DNA from: Gemmatimonadales bacterium
Lineage (GTDB): Bacteria > Gemmatimonadota > Gemmatimonadetes > Gemmatimonadales > GWC2-71-9
Length of the DNA stretch: 64,000 nucleotides
Direction: 5' to 3'
NCBI GenBank assembly: GCA_035491895.1
Contig: DATJJY010000094.1
Location: forward strand, 33,025-97,024
A model generated the notes under the pieces. It was given only the letters and a program-made list of their open reading frames with translations. It did not search any database and had not been told where the DNA came from. Made by a program: the position numbers and the translations under genes. Shown here piece after piece: positions 9,421-60,198 of the stretch. Numbering within the stretch: the stretch's first letter is position 1; every line of letters begins with the position of its first letter.

Positions 9421-9765
9421 ATGGCAACCGCCACCCGACGCAATCGGTCGCTCGACCGGGTCTATGGCGCGATCGCGGATCCCACGCGGCGCGCGATGCT
9501 GGCCGTCCTGGCCGGCGGCGACGTCACCGTCGGCACCCTCGCCGGCCGTTTCCCCATCACCTTCAATGGTGCCTCCAAACACGTGAAGGTGCTGGAACGG
9601 GCCGGCCTCGTGACCCGTCGCGTCCGGGGCCGCGAGCACTGGCTGCGGCTCGAGCCCCGCCCGCTGCTCGACGCCGCCCGCTGGATCGAGCACTACCGCG
9701 CGTTCTGGGACACGCGACTGGCCGCGCTCGAGACGTTGCTGGTGCGGCACCATAACCGCGCTTGA
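9421..9765 (+). CDS. ArsR/SmtB-family transcriptional regulator
   Basis: Winged-HTH core: YGAIADPTRRAMLAVLAGGDVTVGTLAGRFPITFNGASKHVKVLERAGLVTRR. The ATG at 9421 is preferred over the TTG at 9412. Paired with an SRPBCC gene, a common arrangement. Confidence 0.9.
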   Translation: MATATRRNRSLDRVYGAIADPTRRAMLAVLAGGDVTVGTLAGRFPITFNGASKHVKVLERAGLVTRRVRGREHWLRLEPRPLLDAARWIEHYRAFWDTRLAALETLLVRHHNRA

Positions 9766-9876
9766 AAGCGCGGCTCGGCGCTTCGCGGGGGCCCTGAAGG
9801 GCAGGAGCCGCGTGAATAGTGATTGACGTCTTTCAAGACGTGTCGCGTCCGCGCCGAGCCCCGGCTTTAGCCGGGG
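9756..9876. repeat. Multi-hairpin intergenic element, family B copy 1
   Basis: Four hairpins: CCGCGCT-TGAA-AGCGCGG, GCCC-TGAA-GGGC, ACGTCTT-tc-AAGACGT and CCCCGGC-TTTA-GCCGGGG. GCTCGGCG (9773-9780) and CGCCGAGC (9852-9859) bracket the central hairpins. The same plan recurs at 10650-10723 and 14894-14998. Confidence 0.75.
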
Positions 9877-14837: not shown

Positions 14838-14893
14838 GGCGGGTAGGATACGGCTTCCCAGGTGGTAGAGCGAGACCTGCGCCAATGCACGAC

Positions 14894-14998
14894 GGCTGAA
14901 ACCATCGCTCGGCGCCCGCGGCGACGCGTCTTGAAAGACGCACGGAACGGGCCATTCATGGCCCGTCGCGCAGCGCCGAGCGCCGGCTTTAGCCGGCG
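14894..14998. repeat. Multi-hairpin intergenic element, family B copy 3
   Basis: GCTCGGCG (14907-14914), GCGTCT-TGAA-AGACGC (14926-14941), GGGCCA-TTCA-TGGCCC (14949-14964), CGCCGAGC (14974-14981) and CGCCGGC-TTTA-GCCGGCG (14981-14998). Confidence 0.75.
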
Positions 14999-20179: not shown

Positions 20180-20749
20180 ATGGGGGTGCGCATGGAGCAG
20201 CGGATCGGCTTTGGAAAGCGCCTGGGAGCTCTGGCCCTGGACTGTGTCTTCGTCATCATCCTGTCGGTTGTCGGCGGGACGACGATCGGTGGCTGGTTCG
20301 GCGCCTACACCGGAGCCCTGACGGCCGGTGCGGCGAGCGCCGCCGCGAGCGCCTCGGGTGATGCGCAGGCGGCGGCTGCCATGGGCGGGATCTTCGGCGC
20401 TATCATCGGCATGGCCCTGGCCGCGACGGTGATCGGCACGGTGTATTTCCTGCTCGAGGGATTCACCGGGTACACCCTTGGCAAGTTCATTCTGGGGATC
20501 CGGATTGCGAGCGACGACGGGACGGCCGCCGGCATCGGCAAGCTGCTGTTTCGGTACCTGGTGAAGAACTCCAACCTGGTTTTGTCGCTGTTGGCGCTGT
20601 TCACGGGTGTGACCGCATTGGCGACACTGGGTAAAGTGGCGGGGTTGCTCATCTTCGTCGGGTGCTTCTTCACGCTCGGCATGAAGCGGCAGGCGTTCCA
20701 CGACATGATCGCGAAGACGGCGGTGTATCCGAAGGGGGCGATAAAGTAG
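20180..20749 (+). CDS. RDD-family membrane protein
   Basis: GFGKRLGALALDCVFV...YTLGKFILGIRI...GMKRQAFHDMIAKTAV matches the RDD domain pattern. The start may be the ATG at 20192. Confidence 0.85.
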   Translation: MGVRMEQRIGFGKRLGALALDCVFVIILSVVGGTTIGGWFGAYTGALTAGAASAAASASGDAQAAAAMGGIFGAIIGMALAATVIGTVYFLLEGFTGYTLGKFILGIRIASDDGTAAGIGKLLFRYLVKNSNLVLSLLALFTGVTALATLGKVAGLLIFVGCFFTLGMKRQAFHDMIAKTAVYPKGAIK

Positions 20750-20750
20750 A

Positions 20751-20870
20751 ACGGTAGGAGACGGTAGGGGGCGGTAGGAGACGGTAAAGGGAAACGGCCG
20801 AGGCAACGTTGCCCGGCCGTTTTCTCGTCTCACCCCTACCGTCTCCTACCGTTCCCTACCGTCTCCTACC
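20751..20870. repeat. ~120-bp near-perfect palindrome built from 4 x 10-bp GGTAGG-containing repeats per arm
   Basis: Left arm: ACGGTAGGAG ACGGTAGGGG GCGGTAGGAG ACGGTAAAGG. Right arm: CCCCTACCG TCTCCTACCG TTCCCTACCG TCTCCTACCG. The arms flank a central hairpin. Confidence 0.9.
20792..20824. terminator. Central hairpin AAACGGCCG(A)GGCAAC/GTTGCCCGGCCGTTT followed by a short T-run; likely terminator for the RDD gene
   Basis: ~15-bp stem with one bulge, then TTTTC on the + strand, 43 nt after the stop codon. Confidence 0.5.
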
Positions 20871-21084
20871 GCCGCGACAGCCCCACCCCGAACTGAAACA
20901 GCTCCACGCTCGTCTGATCGAGCACCTGCTGGCCGTTGAATTTCACTTCCGCGCCGGTCGAACACGTCGCCGTTTCGCGGATCGATCCGCCAGGTCATCG
21001 CGCAGATCGACAACAGCCTCGACAACCTCAACCCGTCGGGACCCGGGATCGGGCAGAGCCGTTCACTCACCCACCTGAGTTCGC

Positions 21085-21123: not shown

Positions 21124-21205
21124 GCCCTGGTGGTGAAACTGGTAGACACGCTGTCTTGAGGGGGCAGTGCCGTAAGGCGTCCCGGTTCGAATCCGGGCCA
21201 GGGCA
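21124..21205 (+). tRNA. tRNA-Leu (anticodon GAG)
   Basis: Hand-folded. Acceptor GCCCTGG/CCAGGGC. Anticodon arm CTGTC-TTGAGGG-GGCAG. Long variable arm. T-arm CCCGG-TTCGAAT-CCGGG. Collinear with E. coli tRNA-Leu(GAG) as I remember it. CCA is not encoded. Confidence 0.9.
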
Positions 21206-21207
21206 TT

Positions 21208-21315
21208 ACTGCTAGACGCCCAGACGCACCGGGGAAAACAGTGAACAGATAGAGATAGGTAGGCCTACCTGTCCCCCGTTTACTGTTCTCCCCGGTGCGT
21301 CTGTGCTCTAGCAGT
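21208..21315. repeat. ~100-bp hairpin element, family A copy 1
   Basis: CTAGACGCCCAGACGCACCGGGGAAAACAG...GGTAGGCCTACC...CTGTTCTCCCCGGTGCGTCTGTGCTCTAG. The arms are mutual reverse complements. It begins 3 nt after the tRNA. Confidence 0.9.
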
Positions 21316-22549: not shown

Positions 22550-22666
22550 CTGCACGACTAGACGCACAGACGCACCGGGGAAAACAGCGAACAGATGAGG
22601 CCGGGTAGGCCTACCTGAGACCCGATATCTGTTCTCCCCTGTGCGTCTGTGCGTCTAGTATTGCAG
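22550..22666. repeat. ~100-bp hairpin element, family A copy 2 (same orientation as copy 1)
   Basis: CTAGACGCACAGACGCACCGGGGAAAACAG...GGTAGGCCTACC...CTGTTCTCCCCTGTGCGTCTGTGCGTCTAG. About 85 of ~100 positions are identical to copy 1 by hand alignment. It starts 9 nt after the arsM stop. Confidence 0.9.
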
Positions 22667-26479: not shown

Positions 26480-26521
26480 CTTAACGCGTCGTGGTGGGCC
26501 GCGCAGACCCAGCCGCGGCGC

Positions 26522-27781
26522 TCAGCCGCGCTTCAAGGACTCGGCGCGCTCGATCAGGAGCGTCCGCTCGCGGGCGTTGCGCGTGAGCCCGGCCGCCCGC
26601 TCCAGCTCCGCACGCGCCTCCTCCGAGCGACCCAGTTTCGCGAGAAAGTCGGCGCGCACCGCCGGCAGCAGGTAGTACTCGCGCATCGCCGGCTCATCCC
26701 GCAGGGGATCGACGATCTCCAGTCCCGCCGCGGGCCCGAACGCCATCGCGTAGGCGACGCCGCGGTTCAGCTCGACCACCGGCGAGGGCGTCAGCTGGGC
26801 AAGGGCATCGTACAGCGCCGTGATGCGGGTCCAGTCGGTTTCCTCAGGGCTGGTGGCGCGGGCGTGGCAGGCGGCGATGGCCGCCTGCACCGTGTAGGGA
26901 CCGTACGCGCCGCCGAGCGATTCGGCACGCTCGAGTGCCGCCAGCCCGCGGCGGATCAACAGCTGGTCCCAGCGGGCGCGATCCTGATCGAGCAGCAGAA
27001 TCGGCTCGCCGCTCGGGGACAGGCGCGCCCGGAGCCGTGAGCTCTGGATCTCGAGCAGGGCGACGAGGCCGTGCACTTCGGGCTCCTGCGGCATGAGCTC
27101 GGCCAGTACGCGGCCTAGCCGTACGGCATCCTCGCACAGCGCCGGTCGGGCCCAGTCATCCCCCGCCGTCGCCGAGTAGCCTTCGTTGAAGACGAGGTAA
27201 ATCACCGCGAGCACCGACGACAGCCGGGCTGCGCGGTCGTCACCGCGCGGCACCTCGAAGGGGACGTGGGCTTCCCGCAGCGTCCGTTTCGCCCGCACGA
27301 TGCGCTGGGCGATCGTCGCCTCGGGAACGAGAAAGGCGCGTGCGATCTCGTCGGTCGTGAGGCCGCCGAGGAGTCGGAGGGTGAGTGCCACCCGCGCCTC
27401 GGGCGAGAGCACCGGGTGGCAGGTGGTAAACACGAGGCGCAGGATGTCGTCGCCGAAATCGTCGTCCAAGAGGTCAAGGTCGGGGGCGGTACGCTCCTGC
27501 TCCGCGGCGAGCTCGTAGGTCAGGCCGGCGTGTTTGGCATCGAGCATCTTGCGGCGTCGCAGTAGATCGATGGCGCGATGCTTGGCCGCGGCCATGAGCC
27601 AGGCTCCCGGGTTGTCCGGAACCCCTGACTCGGGCCACCGCTCGAGCGCCGCGACCAGCGCGTCCTGCGCGAGGTCTTCGGCGAGACCGACATCCTTCAC
27701 CAGGCGCGCGAGTCCACCGATCAGTCTGGCGGATTCGATCCGCCAGACTGCCTCGATGGCGCGATGCGCTTCGGATGACAT
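26522..27781 (-). CDS. ECF sigma factor with long C-terminal TPR-like extension (COG4941 / ECF42-like)
   Basis: The start at MSSEAHRAIEAVWRIESARLIGGLARL overlaps the upstream YCII stop by 1 nt. Region 2: LAQDALVAALERW...PGAWLMAAAKHRAIDLLRR. Region 4: LGGLTTDEIARAFLVPEATIAQRIVRAKR. The ~230-aa helical C-terminal extension is present and no anti-sigma gene is adjacent. Confidence 0.9.
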   Translation of the reverse strand: MSSEAHRAIEAVWRIESARLIGGLARLVKDVGLAEDLAQDALVAALERWPESGVPDNPGAWLMAAAKHRAIDLLRRRKMLDAKHAGLTYELAAEQERTAPDLDLLDDDFGDDILRLVFTTCHPVLSPEARVALTLRLLGGLTTDEIARAFLVPEATIAQRIVRAKRTLREAHVPFEVPRGDDRAARLSSVLAVIYLVFNEGYSATAGDDWARPALCEDAVRLGRVLAELMPQEPEVHGLVALLEIQSSRLRARLSPSGEPILLLDQDRARWDQLLIRRGLAALERAESLGGAYGPYTVQAAIAACHARATSPEETDWTRITALYDALAQLTPSPVVELNRGVAYAMAFGPAAGLEIVDPLRDEPAMREYYLLPAVRADFLAKLGRSEEARAELERAAGLTRNARERTLLIERAESLKRG

Positions 27782-28154: not shown

Positions 28155-28574
28155 TTAGCGTTGCTTGGATGCCTGAGCGCGCAGCCGGGCTTCCTGATCG
28201 CGCAGTTCCGGCGTGAGATTGGGGCCGAAGTCGTCCGCCTCGAACACCTGGCGGATCTCGATCACCGTGCCGCCGTCGAACGGGGCCCGCTTCATCCAGG
28301 CGATCGCCTCGTCCTTGTTCTTGACCTGAATCAGCCAGAATCCGGCGATCAGCTCCTTGGATTCGGTGAACGGCCCGTCGGTGACGGTCGTCCTGCCGCC
28401 CGAGAATTTGATGCGCGCCCCTTTCGAGGTGGCGTGCAACCCCTCGCCGGCGAGCATCACGCCGGCCTTCACCATCTCTTCGTTGAACTTGCCCATCTTG
28501 CTCAGGATCTCCTGGTCGGGGAGCACCCCCGCCTCGGAATCCTTGTTCGCTGGGACAATCACCATGAACCTCAT
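28155..28574 (-). CDS. YCII-related (DGPF-motif) protein
   Basis: 139 aa from MRFMVIVPANK... after an AAGGAG RBS. Carries the TVTDGPFTESKELIAGF motif. Confidence 0.88.
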   Translation of the reverse strand: MRFMVIVPANKDSEAGVLPDQEILSKMGKFNEEMVKAGVMLAGEGLHATSKGARIKFSGGRTTVTDGPFTESKELIAGFWLIQVKNKDEAIAWMKRAPFDGGTVIEIRQVFEADDFGPNLTPELRDQEARLRAQASKQR

Positions 28575-28681
28575 AGTCACTCCTTGCGTGTGTGAGCGCT
28601 TTGCAATCGTCTCTACCCCTGCGACGAATGAAAGGCTGGGCGATCGACATGCTTTTAAGTGCTTGATTCCATGTGCGATGG

Positions 28682-28846
28682 GATGGAGACGTCGAGACGG
28701 CGAGGGAGACGCCAACCCGCCAAGCCGCCGAAAGGACGCCAAGGAACCAGGAGCTAGGAAGGTCCTAATACCCGATTCCTGGGCCTCCACTCGGCGGCTC
28801 GGCGGCGCGGCGTCTGCCTAGTCGGCTCGCCGTCTCGGCGTCTATC
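28682..28846. promoter_or_regulatory. ~165-bp inverted-repeat cis-element in the divergent promoter region
   Basis: Right arm (28791-28846): TCGGCGGCTCGGCGGCGCGGCGTCTGCCTAGTCGGCTCGCCGTCTCGGCGTCTATC. Reverse complement of the left arm (28682-28731): TCGGCGGCTTGGCGGGTTGGCGTCTCCCTCGCCGTCTCGACGTCTCCATC. They are the same sequence apart from an ~8-nt indel and a few substitutions. Confidence 0.8.
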
Positions 28847-28867
28847 TTCGAGGTGAAAGGAGAGTGC

Positions 28868-29980
28868 ATGAGCAGCGTTCGCGTTCTCGTCGGCACCCGC
28901 AAGGGTGCTTTTATCCTGACCTCGGACGGCAAGCGCCAGAAATGGGACGTGGCGGGGCCGCACTTCGCCGGGTGGGAGATCTACCACGTCAAAGGGTCGC
29001 CCGTCGACAAGAACCGGCTTTACGCGTCGCAATCCTCCGGGTGGTTCGGCCAGCAGATCCAGCGATCCAATGACGCCGGCAAGACGTGGGAGCCGGTGGG
29101 GAACAAGTTCGTCTACGAGGGCGTCCCCGGTACGCATCAGTGGTACGACGGCACGCCGCATCCCTGGGAGTTCAAGCGCGTGTGGCACCTCGAGCCGTCG
29201 CTCGACGACCCCGACGCCGTGTACGCCGGCGTGGAAGACGCCGCGTTGTTCCACACGACGGACGGCGGGCAGAGCTGGGCGGAGCTGCCGGGCCTGCGCG
29301 GGCACGGGTCCGGGCCCCACTGGCAGCCCGGCGCCGGCGGGATGTGTCTCCACACGATTCTCATCGATCCGGGCAATCCGAAGCGCATGTTCATCGCGAT
29401 CTCGGCGGCGGGGGCGTTCCGCACCGACGACGCCGGGCGCAGCTGGCGGCCGATCAACCGCGGTCTCAAGTCCCAGGGCATTCCCGATCCCGAGGCCGAG
29501 GTCGGGCACTGCGTGCACCGCATCGCACAGCACCGCTCGCGCCCCGACGTGCTCTTCATGCAGAAGCACTGGGACGTCATGCGCTCCGACGACGCCGGCG
29601 ACACGTGGCGCGAGGTGAGCGGCAATCTCCCCACCGACTTCGGGTTCCCGATCGACGTGCACGCGCATGAGCCGGAGACGATCTACGTCGTCCCGATCAC
29701 GAGCGATTCCTACCACTATCCGCCCGACGGCAAACTGCGCGTCTATCGCAGCCGCACCGGCGGCAACGAATGGGAAGCGCTGACCAAGGGACTGCCGCAG
29801 CGCGACTGCTACGTGAACGTGCTGCGCGACGCGATGGCGGTGGATGCGCTCGACCATTGCGGGATCTACTTCGGCACGACGGGCGGCCAGGTATACGTCT
29901 CGGCCGATGCCGGCGACAACTGGACCGCGATCGTGCACGACCTCCCCGCGGTGCTGTCGGTCGAGGTGCAGACGCTGTGA
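28868..29980 (+). CDS. Asp-box (BNR) beta-propeller protein, sialidase-fold-like, no signal peptide seen
   Basis: ATG at 28868 after an AAGGAG RBS. Five SxDxGxTW-type Asp-boxes: [34 protein letters not shown] and SADAGDNW. Confidence 0.88.
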
Positions 29981-30276
29981 TGGTCCGCGTCGCGCTTCCG
30001 GCCCACCTCAAGACGCTGGCGAGCGTGTCGGACGAAGTGGAGCTGCAGGTGGCGGCGCCGGTGACGCAGGGCAGGGTGCTCGATGCCCTCGAAGCCCGCT
30101 ATCCAATGCTGCGCGGGGCGATCCGCGACCACGTCACGCTCGAGCGCCGGCCGTTCGTGCGCTTCTTCGCCTGCGCGCGGGACCTGTCGCACGAACGGCC
30201 CGACGCCCCGCTCCCCGAGGCGGTCCAGTCGGGGACCGAGCCGTTTCTCGTCGTGGGAGCGATGGCGGGAGGGTAG
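29980..30276 (+). CDS. MoaD/ThiS-like ubiquitin-fold (beta-grasp) protein ending in Gly-Gly
   Basis: 98 aa. TGATG overlap with the upstream gene. [14 protein letters not shown]...[12 protein letters not shown]...[10 protein letters not shown] has MoaD-like length, pattern and C-terminal GG. Confidence 0.8.
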
Positions 30277-30320: not shown

Positions 30321-33296
30321 GTGAACGCGTTCGCAGATTTGTTCGCCGGCGGGGGCGAGATGGGCGCCCTCATGCGCTCGACCGACTGGGCGAAGACACG
30401 GCTCGGTCCGGTCGAGGGCTGGCCGAGCAGTCTCCGCACCATGCTGGGAGTGGTCCTCGGTAGCCGATTCCCCATGCTGCTGTGGTGGGGCCCCGACCTG
30501 CTGCACCTGTACAACGACGCCTACCGTCCGATCCTGCGGAACAAGCACCCCGCCTCGCTGGCCGCACCGGCCGCGGAGGTGTGGGCCGAGGTCTGGGATG
30601 TCGCCGGCCCCATGGCGCGCAGCGTCCAGGAGGGAGGTCCCGCGACCTGGACGGAGGACCTCCAGCTCTTCATCAACAGCGGAGGCATGGCCGAGGAGAC
30701 GTACTTTACTTTTTCGTACAGCCCCGTTCCGGGCGATGACGGACGAGTCGGCGGTCTCCTCAATACGGTGCAGGAAACGACCGCGAAGGTCCAAGGCGAA
30801 CGCCAGATCCGGATGCTGCACGACCTGGCGGCGCGGGCGGCCGAGGCCAAGTCCGAACACGAAGCGTACGGTAGAGTGATGGAGGTGCTCTCGGGCAACG
30901 AATTGGATCTCCCGTTCGCGCTGCTCTATGTGGTGAACGAGCAGGCCGACGAGGCCCGGCTCGTCGGCGCCAGCGGGTGGACGGCGTATGAGGGCGGCGG
31001 CAAGCCGACCCATATCGCGATCACGGAGGATACACGCGCGGCGTCCTGGCCCTTCATGGAGGCCGTGCGAACCGCGCGCGAAGTGATTGTCGACGATCTG
31101 GCCGCGCGCTTCGGACCACTTCCGCCGGGTCGCTGGAATGCGCGACCCGAACGGGCGATCATCCTGCCCCTGCGGCGCGCCGGCCAATCGGTGCCCTATG
31201 CGGTGCTCGTTGCGGGCATCAGCCCGCACCGCGCGTTCGACGATCGGTATCGGATGTTCTTCCAGGTCACCGCCGATCAGGTGGCGAACGTCGTCGCGAA
31301 GGTTCGCGCCTACGAGAGCGAGCGGAAGCGCGCTGAGGCGCTCGCCGAGCTCGATCGAGCCAAGACGACCTTCTTCAGCAACGTCTCCCATGAATTCCGG
31401 ACGCCGCTGACGCTCCTCCTCGGCCCGGTCGAAGACGCCCTGGCGTTGCCCGGCGGAACGCTCCAGGGAGACGACCTCGAGGCGGTGCATCGCAGCGCGC
31501 TGCGGCTCCTGCGACTCGTGAACAGTCTGCTCGACTTCGCCCGCATCGAGGCAGGACGGGTACAGGTGTCGTTCGTCCCGACCGATCTCGCGAGCCTGAC
31601 GGCCGACGTGGCCAGCTCGTTCCGCTCGCTGGTCGAGCGGGCCGGCTTGAGGCTCGTGGTCGATTGTCCTCCGATTGCCGAGCCGGTGTACGTGGACACC
31701 GCGCAGTGGGAGAAAATCACGCTCAACCTCCTCTCCAATGCGTTCAAGTTCACGCTCCGGGGGGAGATCGCCGTCACGCTGCGCGCGCAGGACGATCGTG
31801 TCGAGTTGACCGTGCGCGATACCGGCACCGGGATCCCATCCCACGAGCTGCCGCGAATTTTCGAGCGGTTTCACCGCGTCGCTGGGGCGGCGGGCCGCAG
31901 TTTCGAAGGCACGGGCATCGGTCTTTCATTGGTGCACGATCTGGTGAAGCTGCACGGCGGATCGGTGCGTGTCGCGAGCGTGGAGGGTCAGGGCAGCACG
32001 TTCGTGGTGTCGCTGCCGACCGGCCGCGCGCACCTGCCCGCCGAGCGGGTCGCCGATCGGGCAGCGCCGTCGTCCACGTCGAGCGCGGCGCCGTATCTGC
32101 TGGAGGCCTCGCGGTGGCTCGACACGGGGCAAGACGGCGGGCCGGTGGCCGAGGCGCCCTTCGACGACGATCCCTCTCCTGCCGACCTCCGCACGGCGTC
32201 TCGCCGCGAGCGCGCCCGCGTCCTCGTCGTCGACGACAACGCCGACATGCGGGACTATCTCGCCAAGCTCCTGTCCACGCGCTGGCAGGTGGACGTCGTG
32301 CCCGACGGCCGGGCGGCCCTCACGTCGGCGCTCGGCCATCCGCCCGACCTGGTGCTGAGCGACATCATGATGCCCGGGATGGACGGATTCGCGCTGGTCC
32401 GCGAGCTGCGCGCCCACGCCGCGACCAGTCAGGTGCCCGTGGTGCTGCTTTCAGCGCGGGCCGGCGAGGAGGCGCTGCTCGAAGGGCTCGACACGGGGGC
32501 GGATGACTACCTGGTCAAACCGTTCGCCGCGCGTGAGCTGCTGGCGCGCGTGCACACCCACATCGAGCTGGCGCGGCTGCGGCGGGAATGGGCGAGCGAG
32601 CTGGAGCGTGCCAACAACGAGCTCGAGGCCTTCAGCTATTCGGTCTCCCATGATCTGCGTGCTCCGCTGCGGGCGATCGACGGGTTCAGCCAGGCATTGC
32701 TCGCCGACTACGGGCACACGCTCGACGAGCAGGGACAGGAGTATCTCGTCCGCGTGCGGTCGGCTACGCAGCGCATGGCGCAGCTCATCGATGATCTCCT
32801 GAGCCTCGCAAAAATCACGCGCGCATCGTTGAGTCGTCAGCGTGTGGACCTCACCGCGCTGGCGCGGCAGGTGTTGGGGGAGCTGGGAATTCGCGACCCG
32901 GGTCGAAGGATCGACTGCCTGGTAGCGGATGGCCTCGTCGTCCAGGCGGACCCTCGTCTCCTCAGGGTGATGCTGGCGAATCTCCTGGGCAACGCCTGGA
33001 AGTTCACCGCGAAACAGCGGACCGCGAAGATCGCGGTCGGCCGGGAGACCACGGGAGGCGAAGCGGCGTTCTTCGTCCGCGACAACGGTGCGGGCTTCGA
33101 TATGGCGCACGCCGCGAAGCTCTTCGCGCCGTTCCAGCGCCTCCATTCGGAGGCCGAGTTCGAGGGCACCGGGATCGGGCTCGCCACCGTACATCGCGTC
33201 GTCAGTCGGCACGGCGGTCGCATCTGGGCCGAAGCGTCGCCGGGTCAGGGCGCGACGTTCTTGTTCACGCTCGGCGAACCAGCCGGAGCCGGGTAG
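30321..33296 (+). CDS. Multidomain sensor kinase: PAS-like + GAF + HisKA/HATPase + receiver + second HisKA/HATPase
   Basis: H-box 1 FFSNVSHEFRTPLT with G-box GTGIGLSLV. Receiver VLVVDDNADMRDYL...DLVLSDIMMPGMDG...VKP. H-box 2 FSYSVSHDLRAPLR with G-box GTGIGLATV. Confidence 0.92.
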   Translation: MNAFADLFAGGGEMGALMRSTDWAKTRLGPVEGWPSSLRTMLGVVLGSRFPMLLWWGPDLLHLYNDAYRPILRNKHPASLAAPAAEVWAEVWDVAGPMARSVQEGGPATWTEDLQLFINSGGMAEETYFTFSYSPVPGDDGRVGGLLNTVQETTAKVQGERQIRMLHDLAARAAEAKSEHEAYGRVMEVLSGNELDLPFALLYVVNEQADEARLVGASGWTAYEGGGKPTHIAITEDTRAASWPFMEAVRTAREVIVDDLAARFGPLPPGRWNARPERAIILPLRRAGQSVPYAVLVAGISPHRAFDDRYRMFFQVTADQVANVVAKVRAYESERKRAEALAELDRAKTTFFSNVSHEFRTPLTLLLGPVEDALALPGGTLQGDDLEAVHRSALRLLRLVNSLLDFARIEAGRVQVSFVPTDLASLTADVASSFRSLVERAGLRLVVDCPPIAEPVYVDTAQWEKITLNLLSNAFKFTLRGEIAVTLRAQDDRVELTVRDTGTGIPSHELPRIFERFHRVAGAAGRSFEGTGIGLSLVHDLVKLHGGSVRVASVEGQGSTFVVSLPTGRAHLPAERVADRAAPSSTSSAAPYLLEASRWLDTGQDGGPVAEAPFDDDPSPADLRTASRRERARVLVVDDNADMRDYLAKLLSTRWQVDVVPDGRAALTSALGHPPDLVLSDIMMPGMDGFALVRELRAHAATSQVPVVLLSARAGEEALLEGLDTGADDYLVKPFAARELLARVHTHIELARLRREWASELERANNELEAFSYSVSHDLRAPLRAIDGFSQALLADYGHTLDEQGQEYLVRVRSATQRMAQLIDDLLSLAKITRASLSRQRVDLTALARQVLGELGIRDPGRRIDCLVADGLVVQADPRLLRVMLANLLGNAWKFTAKQRTAKIAVGRETTGGEAAFFVRDNGAGFDMAHAAKLFAPFQRLHSEAEFEGTGIGLATVHRVVSRHGGRIWAEASPGQGATFLFTLGEPAGAG

Positions 33297-60111: not shown

Positions 60112-60198
60112 TGGTACCGTGGCGCTTTGGGCCAGGGGCTTGTCGATTTGCGGTGGCTCCGATCGTCGTTTCTCAGACTGCATTCCGGAGGGGTGACC

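Follow-up and report, generated by a model that had tools for sequence, protein, structure and literature searches.

A probable interspersed hairpin repeat beside a predicted ECF42-type promoter between divergent operons of soil Gemmatimonadales

Which DNA element, if any, connects an ECF42-like sigma factor to the operon that diverges from its own? In the window (the whole 64-kb stretch of DNA that we analysed), a 293-bp intergenic region (28575-28867) separates a YCII–YCII–sigma operon from an oppositely oriented operon that encodes a beta-propeller protein followed by a small protein ending in GG, hereafter Ubl, for which we found no match in Pfam or NCBIfam (Table 1). A conspicuous palindrome occupies most of this region. 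The physiological role of the ECF42/YCII system is poorly understood, and the palindrome was originally predicted to consist of two inverted arms, each reading outwards as a bipartite ECF-like promoter, which would link both operons and possibly a downstream sensor kinase. We therefore asked what the palindrome is, where the regulatory signal lies and whether the link between the two operons holds across genomes.

Table 1 Features of the region between and around the divergent operons, in window coordinates
Feature	Position	Strand	Basis or remark
ECF sigma factor gene, 419 aa, ECF42-like, long C-terminal extension	26522..27781	-	Sigma70_r2, Sigma70_r4_2, DUF6596 (E = 4.7e-37)
YCII-2 gene, 117 aa	27781..28134	-	PF03795, E = 2.1e-12
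YCII-1 gene, 139 aa	28155..28574	-	PF03795, E = 4.6e-19
Candidate propeller-operon promoter, mirror reading CGACGA-N17-CGAC	28622..28648	+	Same quasi-palindromic site as 28623-28649
Predicted ECF42-type promoter TGTCGA-N17-CGTC, TGTCGATCGCCCAGCCTTTCATTCGTC	28623..28649	-	Pattern match; upstream of the YCII–YCII–sigma operon
Probable full hairpin repeat copy, 165 bp	28682..28846	.	Imperfect palindrome centred on AGG 28760-28762; arms, fold z-scores, family alignment
Left arm	28682..28759	+	Degenerate array of 8-nt units (GAGACGNC / AAGCCGCC and so on); three AGACG boxes at outer end
Right arm, same half-element	28763..28846	-	Three CGTCT boxes at outer end
Ribosome-binding site of propeller gene, GAAAGGAG	28853..28860	+	Outside the hairpin; GAAAGGAG kept in every relative, with or without hairpin
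BNR/Asp-box beta-propeller gene, 370 aa	28868..29980	+	Sortilin-Vps10 and BNR Pfam matches
Ubl, 98-aa protein ending in GG	29980..30276	+	Adjoins the propeller gene, downstream
Hybrid histidine kinase gene	30321-33296	+	Downstream of the gene for the GG-terminated protein

The palindrome is a single 165-bp hairpin

The quoted right arm (28791-28846, 56 nt) and the left arm, as its reverse complement (28682-28731, 50 nt), each occur exactly once in the window. Their alignment contains 43 identities and a single gap block of 7 + 1 nt, a score matched by none of 2,000 shuffles, confirming the predicted pair of inverted arms of around 50 nt that differ by an indel of around 8 nt. The nested palindromes CCAGGA/TCCTGG and TAGGA-AGG-TCCTA were likewise found on reading the sequence. 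The arms thus stood up, and the separate 59-bp centre proposed to lie between them did not: an inverted-repeat search paired 28686-28759 with 28763-28836 (74 nt each, 76% complementary, with 3 nt between), so that the symmetry runs past 50 nt and through the supposed centre, and arms and centre together make up one 165-bp imperfect palindrome. As RNA, this hairpin reaches a minimum free energy of -111 kcal/mol on the plus strand (z = -7.7) and -122 kcal/mol on the minus strand (z = -10.1), and on each strand none of 200 shuffles was as stable.

The box spacing that had suggested a promoter has a simpler origin. In both arms, GGCGTCT is indeed followed 15 nt later by CGTCT, although the boxes paired in this way are non-homologous: the partner is the middle CGTCT in the right arm (offsets 18 and 40) and the outermost CGTCT in the left arm (offsets 18 and 40), which has a further box at offset 32. 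The right arm contains one 8-nt unit more than the left, and the equal spacing arises because the 8-nt indel corresponds to the 8-nt period of the boxes, which is a coincidence.

We rejected an intrinsic terminator as an explanation for the hairpin, because no U-run (T-run in the DNA) follows the long stem on either strand; the position between divergent gene starts is a further argument against it. A terminator scan returned only a 5-bp internal stem (28828-28840) and one stem inside the propeller gene, and a search of the whole window against Rfam at the gathering threshold gave no matches.

A dispersed family of hairpins with 8-nt-unit arms

A half-element motif of 29 nt derived from the arms at this locus, AGACGCCNNNCCGCYGNGCCGCYGAGTGG, was used for an exact scan of a metagenome collection and matched 81 soil-metagenome stretches. 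We retrieved 80 of the matched loci: YCII, sigma and/or propeller genes adjoin the match in six and a PEP mutase gene lies beside it in three, and the flanks are unrelated in about 70. This is the outcome that had been named as counting against a regulatory reading, namely that the arms are another copy of a dispersed repeat. A half-element profile (nhmmer) built from 75 distinct half-elements then identified 154 arms in the retrieved loci, paired in 43 full hairpins or, for the remaining 68, standing solo or in tandem. Across the 64-kb window, the profile matched two arms, both belonging to the hairpin described here (left, 28664-28768, plus strand, E = 1.6e-15; right, 28754-28859, minus strand, E = 3.1e-21). 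Control loci of other lineages, which total 640 kb and include seven further contigs of Gemmatimonadales/Gemmatimonadota, gave no match.

The 40 distinct full elements span 106-185 nt (median 165.5), all fold at -0.51 to -0.78 kcal/mol per nt, and 29 full members from unrelated loci align end to end with the window copy. The family consensus runs from the AGACG boxes through AGACGCC-GAGCCGCC-GAGCCGCC-GAGTGGAC-G and a variable AGG-rich part to a short loop, followed by the mirror image; the arms are degenerate arrays of 8-nt units (AGACGCC-, GAGCCGCC-, GAGTGGAC- and others). At the outer ends, AGACG boxes on one side face CGTCT boxes on the other, with two to four boxes per end at an 8-nt period, and the loop-proximal third varies in sequence while keeping its self-complementarity. 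Rapid changes in unit number, such as the 8-nt indel in the window copy and the extra units in one relative (L087), suggest slippage within the arrays, by which the repeat would evolve fast with its palindromy kept. Among 18 classifiable non-orthologous full elements, eight lie between convergent, seven between tandem and three between divergent gene pairs, and this mostly convergent or tandem placement resembles the distribution reported for REP elements and is unlike that of a promoter.

Filled, eroded and empty sites in relatives

To follow the hairpin at this site, we fetched relatives through graded YCII homologues and compared their orthologous intergenic regions. The divergent layout, with YCII to sigma on one side and propeller–Ubl on the other, is kept in every Gemmatimonadales relative fetched, and the content of the intergenic region changes considerably. 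In L084 and L085 (96-99% protein identity to the window; intergenic region of 292 nt), the hairpin is similar to the window copy; in L083 (around 97% protein identity; 224 nt), the outer right arm alone remains. L087 (YCII 96%; intergenic region cut by the contig end) carries the extra arm units mentioned above, and in L088 (YCII 91%; 248 nt) the left arm is shortened. L089, L090-L094 and L096 (YCII 86-91%; 282-315 nt) hold full, much diverged hairpins. Two loci with an identical YCII protein, L001 and L002, were uninformative, showing only two intergenic differences from the window, both in L002.

Two relatives with the same genes have no hairpin at the site: L095 (GCA_033853695.1; sigma 90% and propeller 94% identical; 165 nt), which has a partial arm elsewhere in the locus, and L016, a member of the Vicinamibacterales with the same gene layout (sigma 72% identical; 106 nt), in which the promoter described below is present. 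Orthologous sites are thus filled in L096, L089, L090 and the window, empty in L095 and L016, and eroded in L083. The cleanest comparison is between L095, where GATGGG is directly followed by CCTTGAAGCC, and L096, where the hairpin is inserted at precisely that point; we saw no target-site duplication at this one clean pair of junctions. The empty site of L095 may also reflect deletion rather than lack of insertion. A second polymorphic arm occurs between the sigma and PEP mutase genes in L085, L098, L107 and L119 and is absent from the window.

Many unrelated contexts, together with filled and empty orthologous sites, lead us to conclude, with a probability of roughly 0.85, that soil Gemmatimonadales carry a lineage-specific interspersed hairpin repeat and that 28682-28846 represents one copy of it and not a promoter. 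In the 64 kb of this genome and the short metagenome contigs that we covered, we found no transposase, target-site duplication or other mobility mechanism for the family, so calling it mobile relies solely on dispersal and on the filled and empty sites. Such a repeat could spread or persist as a selfish or neutral REP/MITE-like element.

A predicted ECF42-type promoter beside the hairpin

For RpoE10, the ECF42 sigma factor of Sinorhizobium meliloti, every mapped promoter has the form TGTCGG-N17-CGTC, that of its YCII gene among them (PMC6180224 Table 1). Pattern scans of the intergenic region in the window match a single site, 28623-28649, which resembles the RpoE10 promoters in sequence, in spacing and in its place upstream of a YCII gene: TGTCGR-N17-CGTC is followed by a YCII gene and then by the sigma gene. 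The site is 33 bp away from the hairpin, and the YCII-1 start codon follows 49 bp downstream of it. It is kept in all eight distinct orthologous intergenic regions that we compared with that of the window, including those that lack the hairpin. Over the 64-kb window, the promoter motif occurs 3 times against 3.07 expected, so the case for the promoter stands on position and conservation and not on count. On this sequence evidence, 28623-28649 is the cis-element that ties the region to the ECF42 sigma factor, and the predicted driver of the YCII–YCII–sigma operon. The earlier picture is thereby corrected: the striking palindrome between the operons would be a genomic repeat, and the regulatory signal the adjacent 27-bp site. 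Elsewhere in the window, a second match to the promoter motif (60141-60167, plus strand) is followed, after around 30 nt, by a beta-lactamase-family gene that encodes an N-terminal twin-arginine motif.

ECF42-type promoters upstream of propeller genes in other genomes

The original prediction had proposed looking for co-occurrence of the propeller–MoaD-type pair with ECF42/DGPF loci across genomes. We examined the best 80 loci among 594 confirmed relatives of the propeller gene. In these 80, the propeller protein is 79-86% identical, and the hosts belong to Acidobacteriota, Gemmatimonadota, Planctomycetota, Chloroflexota, Actinomycetota, Verrucomicrobiota and other groups. A GG-terminated protein directly follows the propeller in 80/80 loci, and ECF42-like sigma and/or YCII genes are found within 4 kb of the propeller in 12 of the 80.

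We then scanned up to 250 nt upstream of the propeller gene, on the coding strand, for TGTCGN-N17-CGWC in 77 loci. The motif was present in 16 of them, from several phyla and always with a 17-nt spacer, compared with 0.5 on average and at most 3 in shuffled sequences and with none in 80 intragenic samples. The only cultured genome among the loci, Acidipila rosea DSM 103428 (L022), encodes the propeller–Ubl pair and has no such motif in the 250 nt upstream. Restricting the -10 element to CGTC left 2 of the 77 loci, and the 16 were reached by allowing CGWC; the consensus of these 16 promoters is TGTCGAttt...CGtTCGAC(A/T)A. Liu et al. 2018 are said to have described an ECF42 motif with the -10 variant CGAC, which would agree with the CGAC of the propeller promoters. 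In two further loci, L021 and L031, the motif is found ahead of a YCII gene, and the propeller gene comes next, in the same orientation.

Taken together, the 16 promoters, the 12 loci with neighbouring ECF42 or YCII genes, the arrangement in L021 and L031 and the conserved divergent layout support the link between ECF42/YCII and propeller–Ubl. On comparative grounds, this predicted link is real, and the hairpin arms are not its cis-element. The sensor kinase falls outside the conserved unit: the gene after Ubl varies among close relatives (hybrid kinase, MEDS kinase, Asn synthase, MatE or a cytochrome/ferredoxin-domain gene). The ECF42/YCII system thus gains a candidate conserved target, a BNR propeller with a small GG-terminated protein, and the presence of ECF42-type promoters before the propeller in about a fifth of the genomes examined offers a testable handle on the targets of ECF42 sigma factors.

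For the genome under study, the evidence is more evenly balanced. No full ECF42 match lies upstream of the propeller gene on the plus strand in the window, and scanning 28400-29000 for sigma-70 promoters gave no candidates. The quasi-palindromic site of the YCII promoter, when read in the opposite direction, provides a candidate: its -10 side, GATCGACA, equals the -10 region of several propeller promoters elsewhere, and its -35 side matches TGTCGA at 4/6 positions. In L088, the mirror site reads CGTCGA-N17-CGAC, with a -35 match of 5/6. We put the dependence of this genome's propeller operon on ECF42 at about even odds. If the mirror site fires, the propeller–Ubl transcript would carry a stem-loop of around 165 nt in its 5' leader, with the ribosome-binding site left free; the window copy would then lie in the leader, between the ECF42-type promoter site and the ribosome-binding site. 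The repeat probably ends up as a leader hairpin of the propeller operon.

Alternative roles for the hairpin

Could the hairpin nevertheless act in regulation at this site? It is retained across lineages with YCII proteins that are 86-100% identical, and among relatives its right arm has diverged less than the left, which could mean a local function, for example as a propeller promoter or leader. The original proposal, in which the arms are outward-read bipartite ECF-type promoters (GGCGTCT ... CGTCT) and form one cis-element shared by both operons, draws on observations that are correct in themselves: the arms exist and point outwards, CGTC is the -10 core of ECF42 promoters, and both operons are conserved as divergent neighbours. 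The arms share these CGTC cores with ECF42 target promoters and differ from them in lacking a -35 element at the right spacing. No TGTCGR occurs within 28682-28846 on either strand; consequently neither arm contains TGTCGR-N17-CGWC on either strand, no TGTCGR lies at N16-18 from any arm CGTC, and the closest look-alike, AGTCGG, is 13 nt from a CGTC, so that both the -35 hexamer and the 17-nt spacer are missing. The comparison with published ECF42 target motifs, which had been suggested as a check, therefore fits 28623-28649 and not the arms. The 15-nt spacing pairs non-homologous boxes, and box spacing shifts among relatives: L089 lacks 8 nt in this part of the right arm (the gap was positioned by eye), and little of the arm remains in L083. 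The same arms recur at around 70 unrelated loci, where they mainly follow the 3' ends of genes, and in L095 and L016 the operons are divergent in the absence of the arms. A canonical promoter for the YCII operon lies between hairpin and gene; a start from the left arm would fall more than 100 nt further upstream. Given these observations, we regard a shared promoter in the arms as highly improbable.

The most serious competitor is an exapted leader RNA, in which the stem in the propeller–Ubl 5' leader would adjust expression against that of the YCII–sigma operon by offering RNase III a cleavage site, by acting on mRNA stability or by forming a roadblock. The stem, which is very stable, stops 6 nt short of the ribosome-binding site and leaves that site free, the hairpin persists here in several lineages with the propeller-proximal arm better conserved, and the ECF42-type promoters of other genomes lie 23-172 nt upstream of the propeller start, which implies that a leader exists. 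Family arms elsewhere also enclose a whole small ORF, in the manner of the stem of a 23S rRNA intervening sequence. Against this, the plus-strand promoter match is weak, L095 and L016 do without the hairpin and L083 retains an eroded one, most family members are at 3' ends, and there is no Rfam match. Covariation does not help: RNAalifold on 30 family members, restricted to the conserved core, returned 19 pairs, 3 of them with compensatory changes and a covariation term of around 0. An otherwise invariant core with 3 compensatory pairs does not demonstrate selection on RNA pairing, and indels disrupt the alignment in the variable part near the loop; the result therefore lends no support to an RNA function. 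We consider a leader function possible, if on balance unlikely.

The element could instead act as DNA, with the AGACG/CGTCT boxes binding a regulator or nucleoid protein, or with the palindrome forming an insulating cruciform between the divergent promoters. In family members, both ends bear two to four such boxes with a period of 8 nt, and AGACG/CGTCT boxes also occur in three further long hairpins of the window whose interiors differ. This reading is nonetheless improbable, as the 8-nt period is out of step with helical phasing, the family is found in every class of intergenic region, close relatives that share the operons lack the hairpin and no candidate binding protein was identified. An interspersed repeat, which may have landed in a leader, remains our preferred reading of 28682-28846.

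Relation to known repeat elements

Several classes of bacterial repeat offer precedents for such an element. REP/REPIN elements are mobilized by RAYT transposases (IS200/IS605-type), whose single-copy genes are flanked by the repeats, and Correia/NEMIS, ERIC and RUP are bacterial MITEs that insert into leaders and are co-transcribed. REP elements are 20-40 bp long, with stems of 5-13 bp and an unpaired GTAG or CGTC tag; they are non-coding and intergenic, lie mostly between convergent or same-direction genes, and occur as inverted dimers, singletons and clusters (PMC3733652). Like REPs and REPINs, the family described here consists of short intergenic hairpin repeats with many copies per lineage and filled and empty sites, and it includes inverted dimers that form one long stem in addition to singletons and clusters. 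By contrast, its arms are around 75 nt long and built of 8-nt units, and its outer CGTCT boxes are paired with AGACG boxes. We therefore rejected assignment to classical REPs, including the CGTC-tagged families of Di Nocera et al., on size and structure; the consensus also has no terminal GTAG. The likeness to Correia/NEMIS, ERIC and RUP lies in a length of 100-200 bp, long terminal inverted repeats, strong RNA hairpin potential, insertion between promoter and gene, and presence/absence polymorphism. Inverted termini are present, as in MITEs, but no duplication is visible at the one clean junction pair (L096 versus L095), and the arms are internally repetitive.

A literature search found no description of this repeat, and we conclude that it is a new family among interspersed intergenic hairpin repeats. 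Arms made of 8-nt units are an unusual architecture, and the family turns over fast at orthologous sites in soil Gemmatimonadales.

A PF05635 cassette upstream of mnmG

In related contigs, two inverted family arms enclose a PF05635 gene of 125-129 aa just upstream of mnmG, and this is the only gene that we saw consistently flanked by family arms. PF05635 is the 23S rRNA intervening-sequence protein, a four-helix bundle and a distant relative of Avd, the nucleic-acid-binding protein of diversity-generating retroelements. In 23S rRNA intervening sequences, as in the cassette, inverted arms enclose an ORF for a PF05635 four-helix bundle; unlike them, the cassette lies between protein-coding genes rather than in rRNA, and the window copy has no ORF. 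By this analogy, the hairpin family might be an ORF-less miniature of an intervening-sequence-like element, with the mnmG cassette as its full form and the single-copy PF05635 protein as a cognate factor that binds, processes or propagates the repeats. We regard this as a long shot. Were it true, the PF05635 protein and the repeats would parallel the RAYT–REPIN partnership with a different protein, and the window copy would put the propeller–Ubl leader under a PF05635–repeat system. We rejected the PF05635 gene as mobile cargo of the repeat, because all homologues fetched (78-97% identity) are at the same mnmG locus, which marks it as a resident gene flanked by arms. The arm–PF05635–arm cassette was found in every lineage sampled, and in one contig it is inverted.

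Conservation of the propeller and its partner

Copies of the BNR propeller (370 aa) from at least eight phyla share 79-86% identity, and the gene for the 98-aa GG-terminated protein directly follows that of the propeller at 80 of 80 loci, as it does in the window (pair at 28868-30276); both figures describe the best 80 (L003-L082) of 594 confirmed relatives. Because the pair is so conserved between phyla, these sequences suggest either strong constraint or recent horizontal spread. The 98-aa protein had no matches in Pfam or NCBIfam, the propeller gave only sub-threshold matches in NCBIfam, and an informative family assignment is absent for both. We also observed unrelated short tandem repeats immediately 5′ of the propeller gene at three loci from other genomes (L037, L058 and L061; table).

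ECF42-type sites upstream of candidate sigma targets

Upstream of the propeller, the ECF42-type motif TGTCGN-N17-CGWC was found in 16 of 77 genomes, compared with 0.5 expected, and its reverse strand also matched at 10 loci. The site is often a perfect palindrome, TGTCGA-N15-TCGACA, which reads as a promoter on either strand. A second site in the window lies around 30 nt before a beta-lactamase-family gene (start ~60199) encoding a 423-aa protein with a twin-arginine motif at its N-terminus; this gene is likely to be a further target of the sigma factor.

Sites, repeats and hairpins in the window and in compared loci (L-handles, relatives or metagenome contigs)
Feature	Location	Strand	Sequence or unit	Context
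Second ECF42-type site	60141-60167	+	TGTCGATTTGCGGTGGCTCCGATCGTC	intergenic, pattern match
ECF42-type site before propeller	L007, L008, L011, L012, L014, L019, L020, L024, L028, L033, L041, L043, L046, L061, L063, L071
ECF42-type site before YCII	L021, L031
Tandem repeat	L037		GGTGCTC heptamers	propeller upstream
Tandem repeat	L061		GGTCGGAC-type units	propeller upstream
Tandem repeat	L058		15-nt units GAAAGGCCAACCGAA	propeller upstream
Solo arm	L085, 2544-2630			between sigma and PEP mutase genes
Hairpin of distinct type, 125 bp	20749-20874		10-nt units (GGTAGGAGAC...)	immediately 3′ of RDD-family gene stop codon
Third hairpin type	21212-21306 and 22558-22652		CTAGACGC.CAGACGCACCGGGG...	two 95-nt direct copies, 84% identical
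Inverted-repeat pairs	9756-9876 and 14890-14998		GCGCCGAGC...CGGCTTTAGCCGG	common motif

Arms of the hairpin family at other genes

Solo arms of the window's hairpin family lie between the sigma and PEP mutase genes in four relatives (L085, L098, L107 and L119), and the sigma factor of L085 is 98% identical to that of the window. The corresponding gap in the window (26480-26521), only 42 nt long, has no solo arm. The arm beside the PEP mutase gene is a second insertion polymorphism within the sigma/propeller locus. In several solo half-elements (L105, L133, L165, L097, L138 and L156), the AGG-rich, loop-proximal end is positioned roughly 5-25 nt before an ATG; because of this proximity, the repeat may donate a ribosome-binding site to the gene downstream. 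Family arms also occur on either side of a MaoC-like gene (L156 and L164). In every sampled lineage (L102, L130, L132, L146 and L178-L191), inverted arms of this family enclose a gene for PF05635, a four-helix-bundle, 23S rRNA intervening-sequence protein, upstream of mnmG, and in L130 the whole arm-PF05635-arm cassette is reversed relative to its own flanks.

Other repeat types in the window

The hairpin after the RDD-family gene has 35-nt arms that are 94% complementary, and it too contains GAGACG/CGTCTC boxes. The first copy of the third hairpin type directly follows tRNA-Leu(GAG) (21124-21205), and the two copies flank a 1.25-kb segment, possibly an inserted cassette, that encodes a SAM-dependent methyltransferase and contains a 130-aa ORF with the palindrome ATATCAACAGATATTGATAT ahead of it. 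The two inverted-repeat pairs may belong to a further class of small repeats in the genome.
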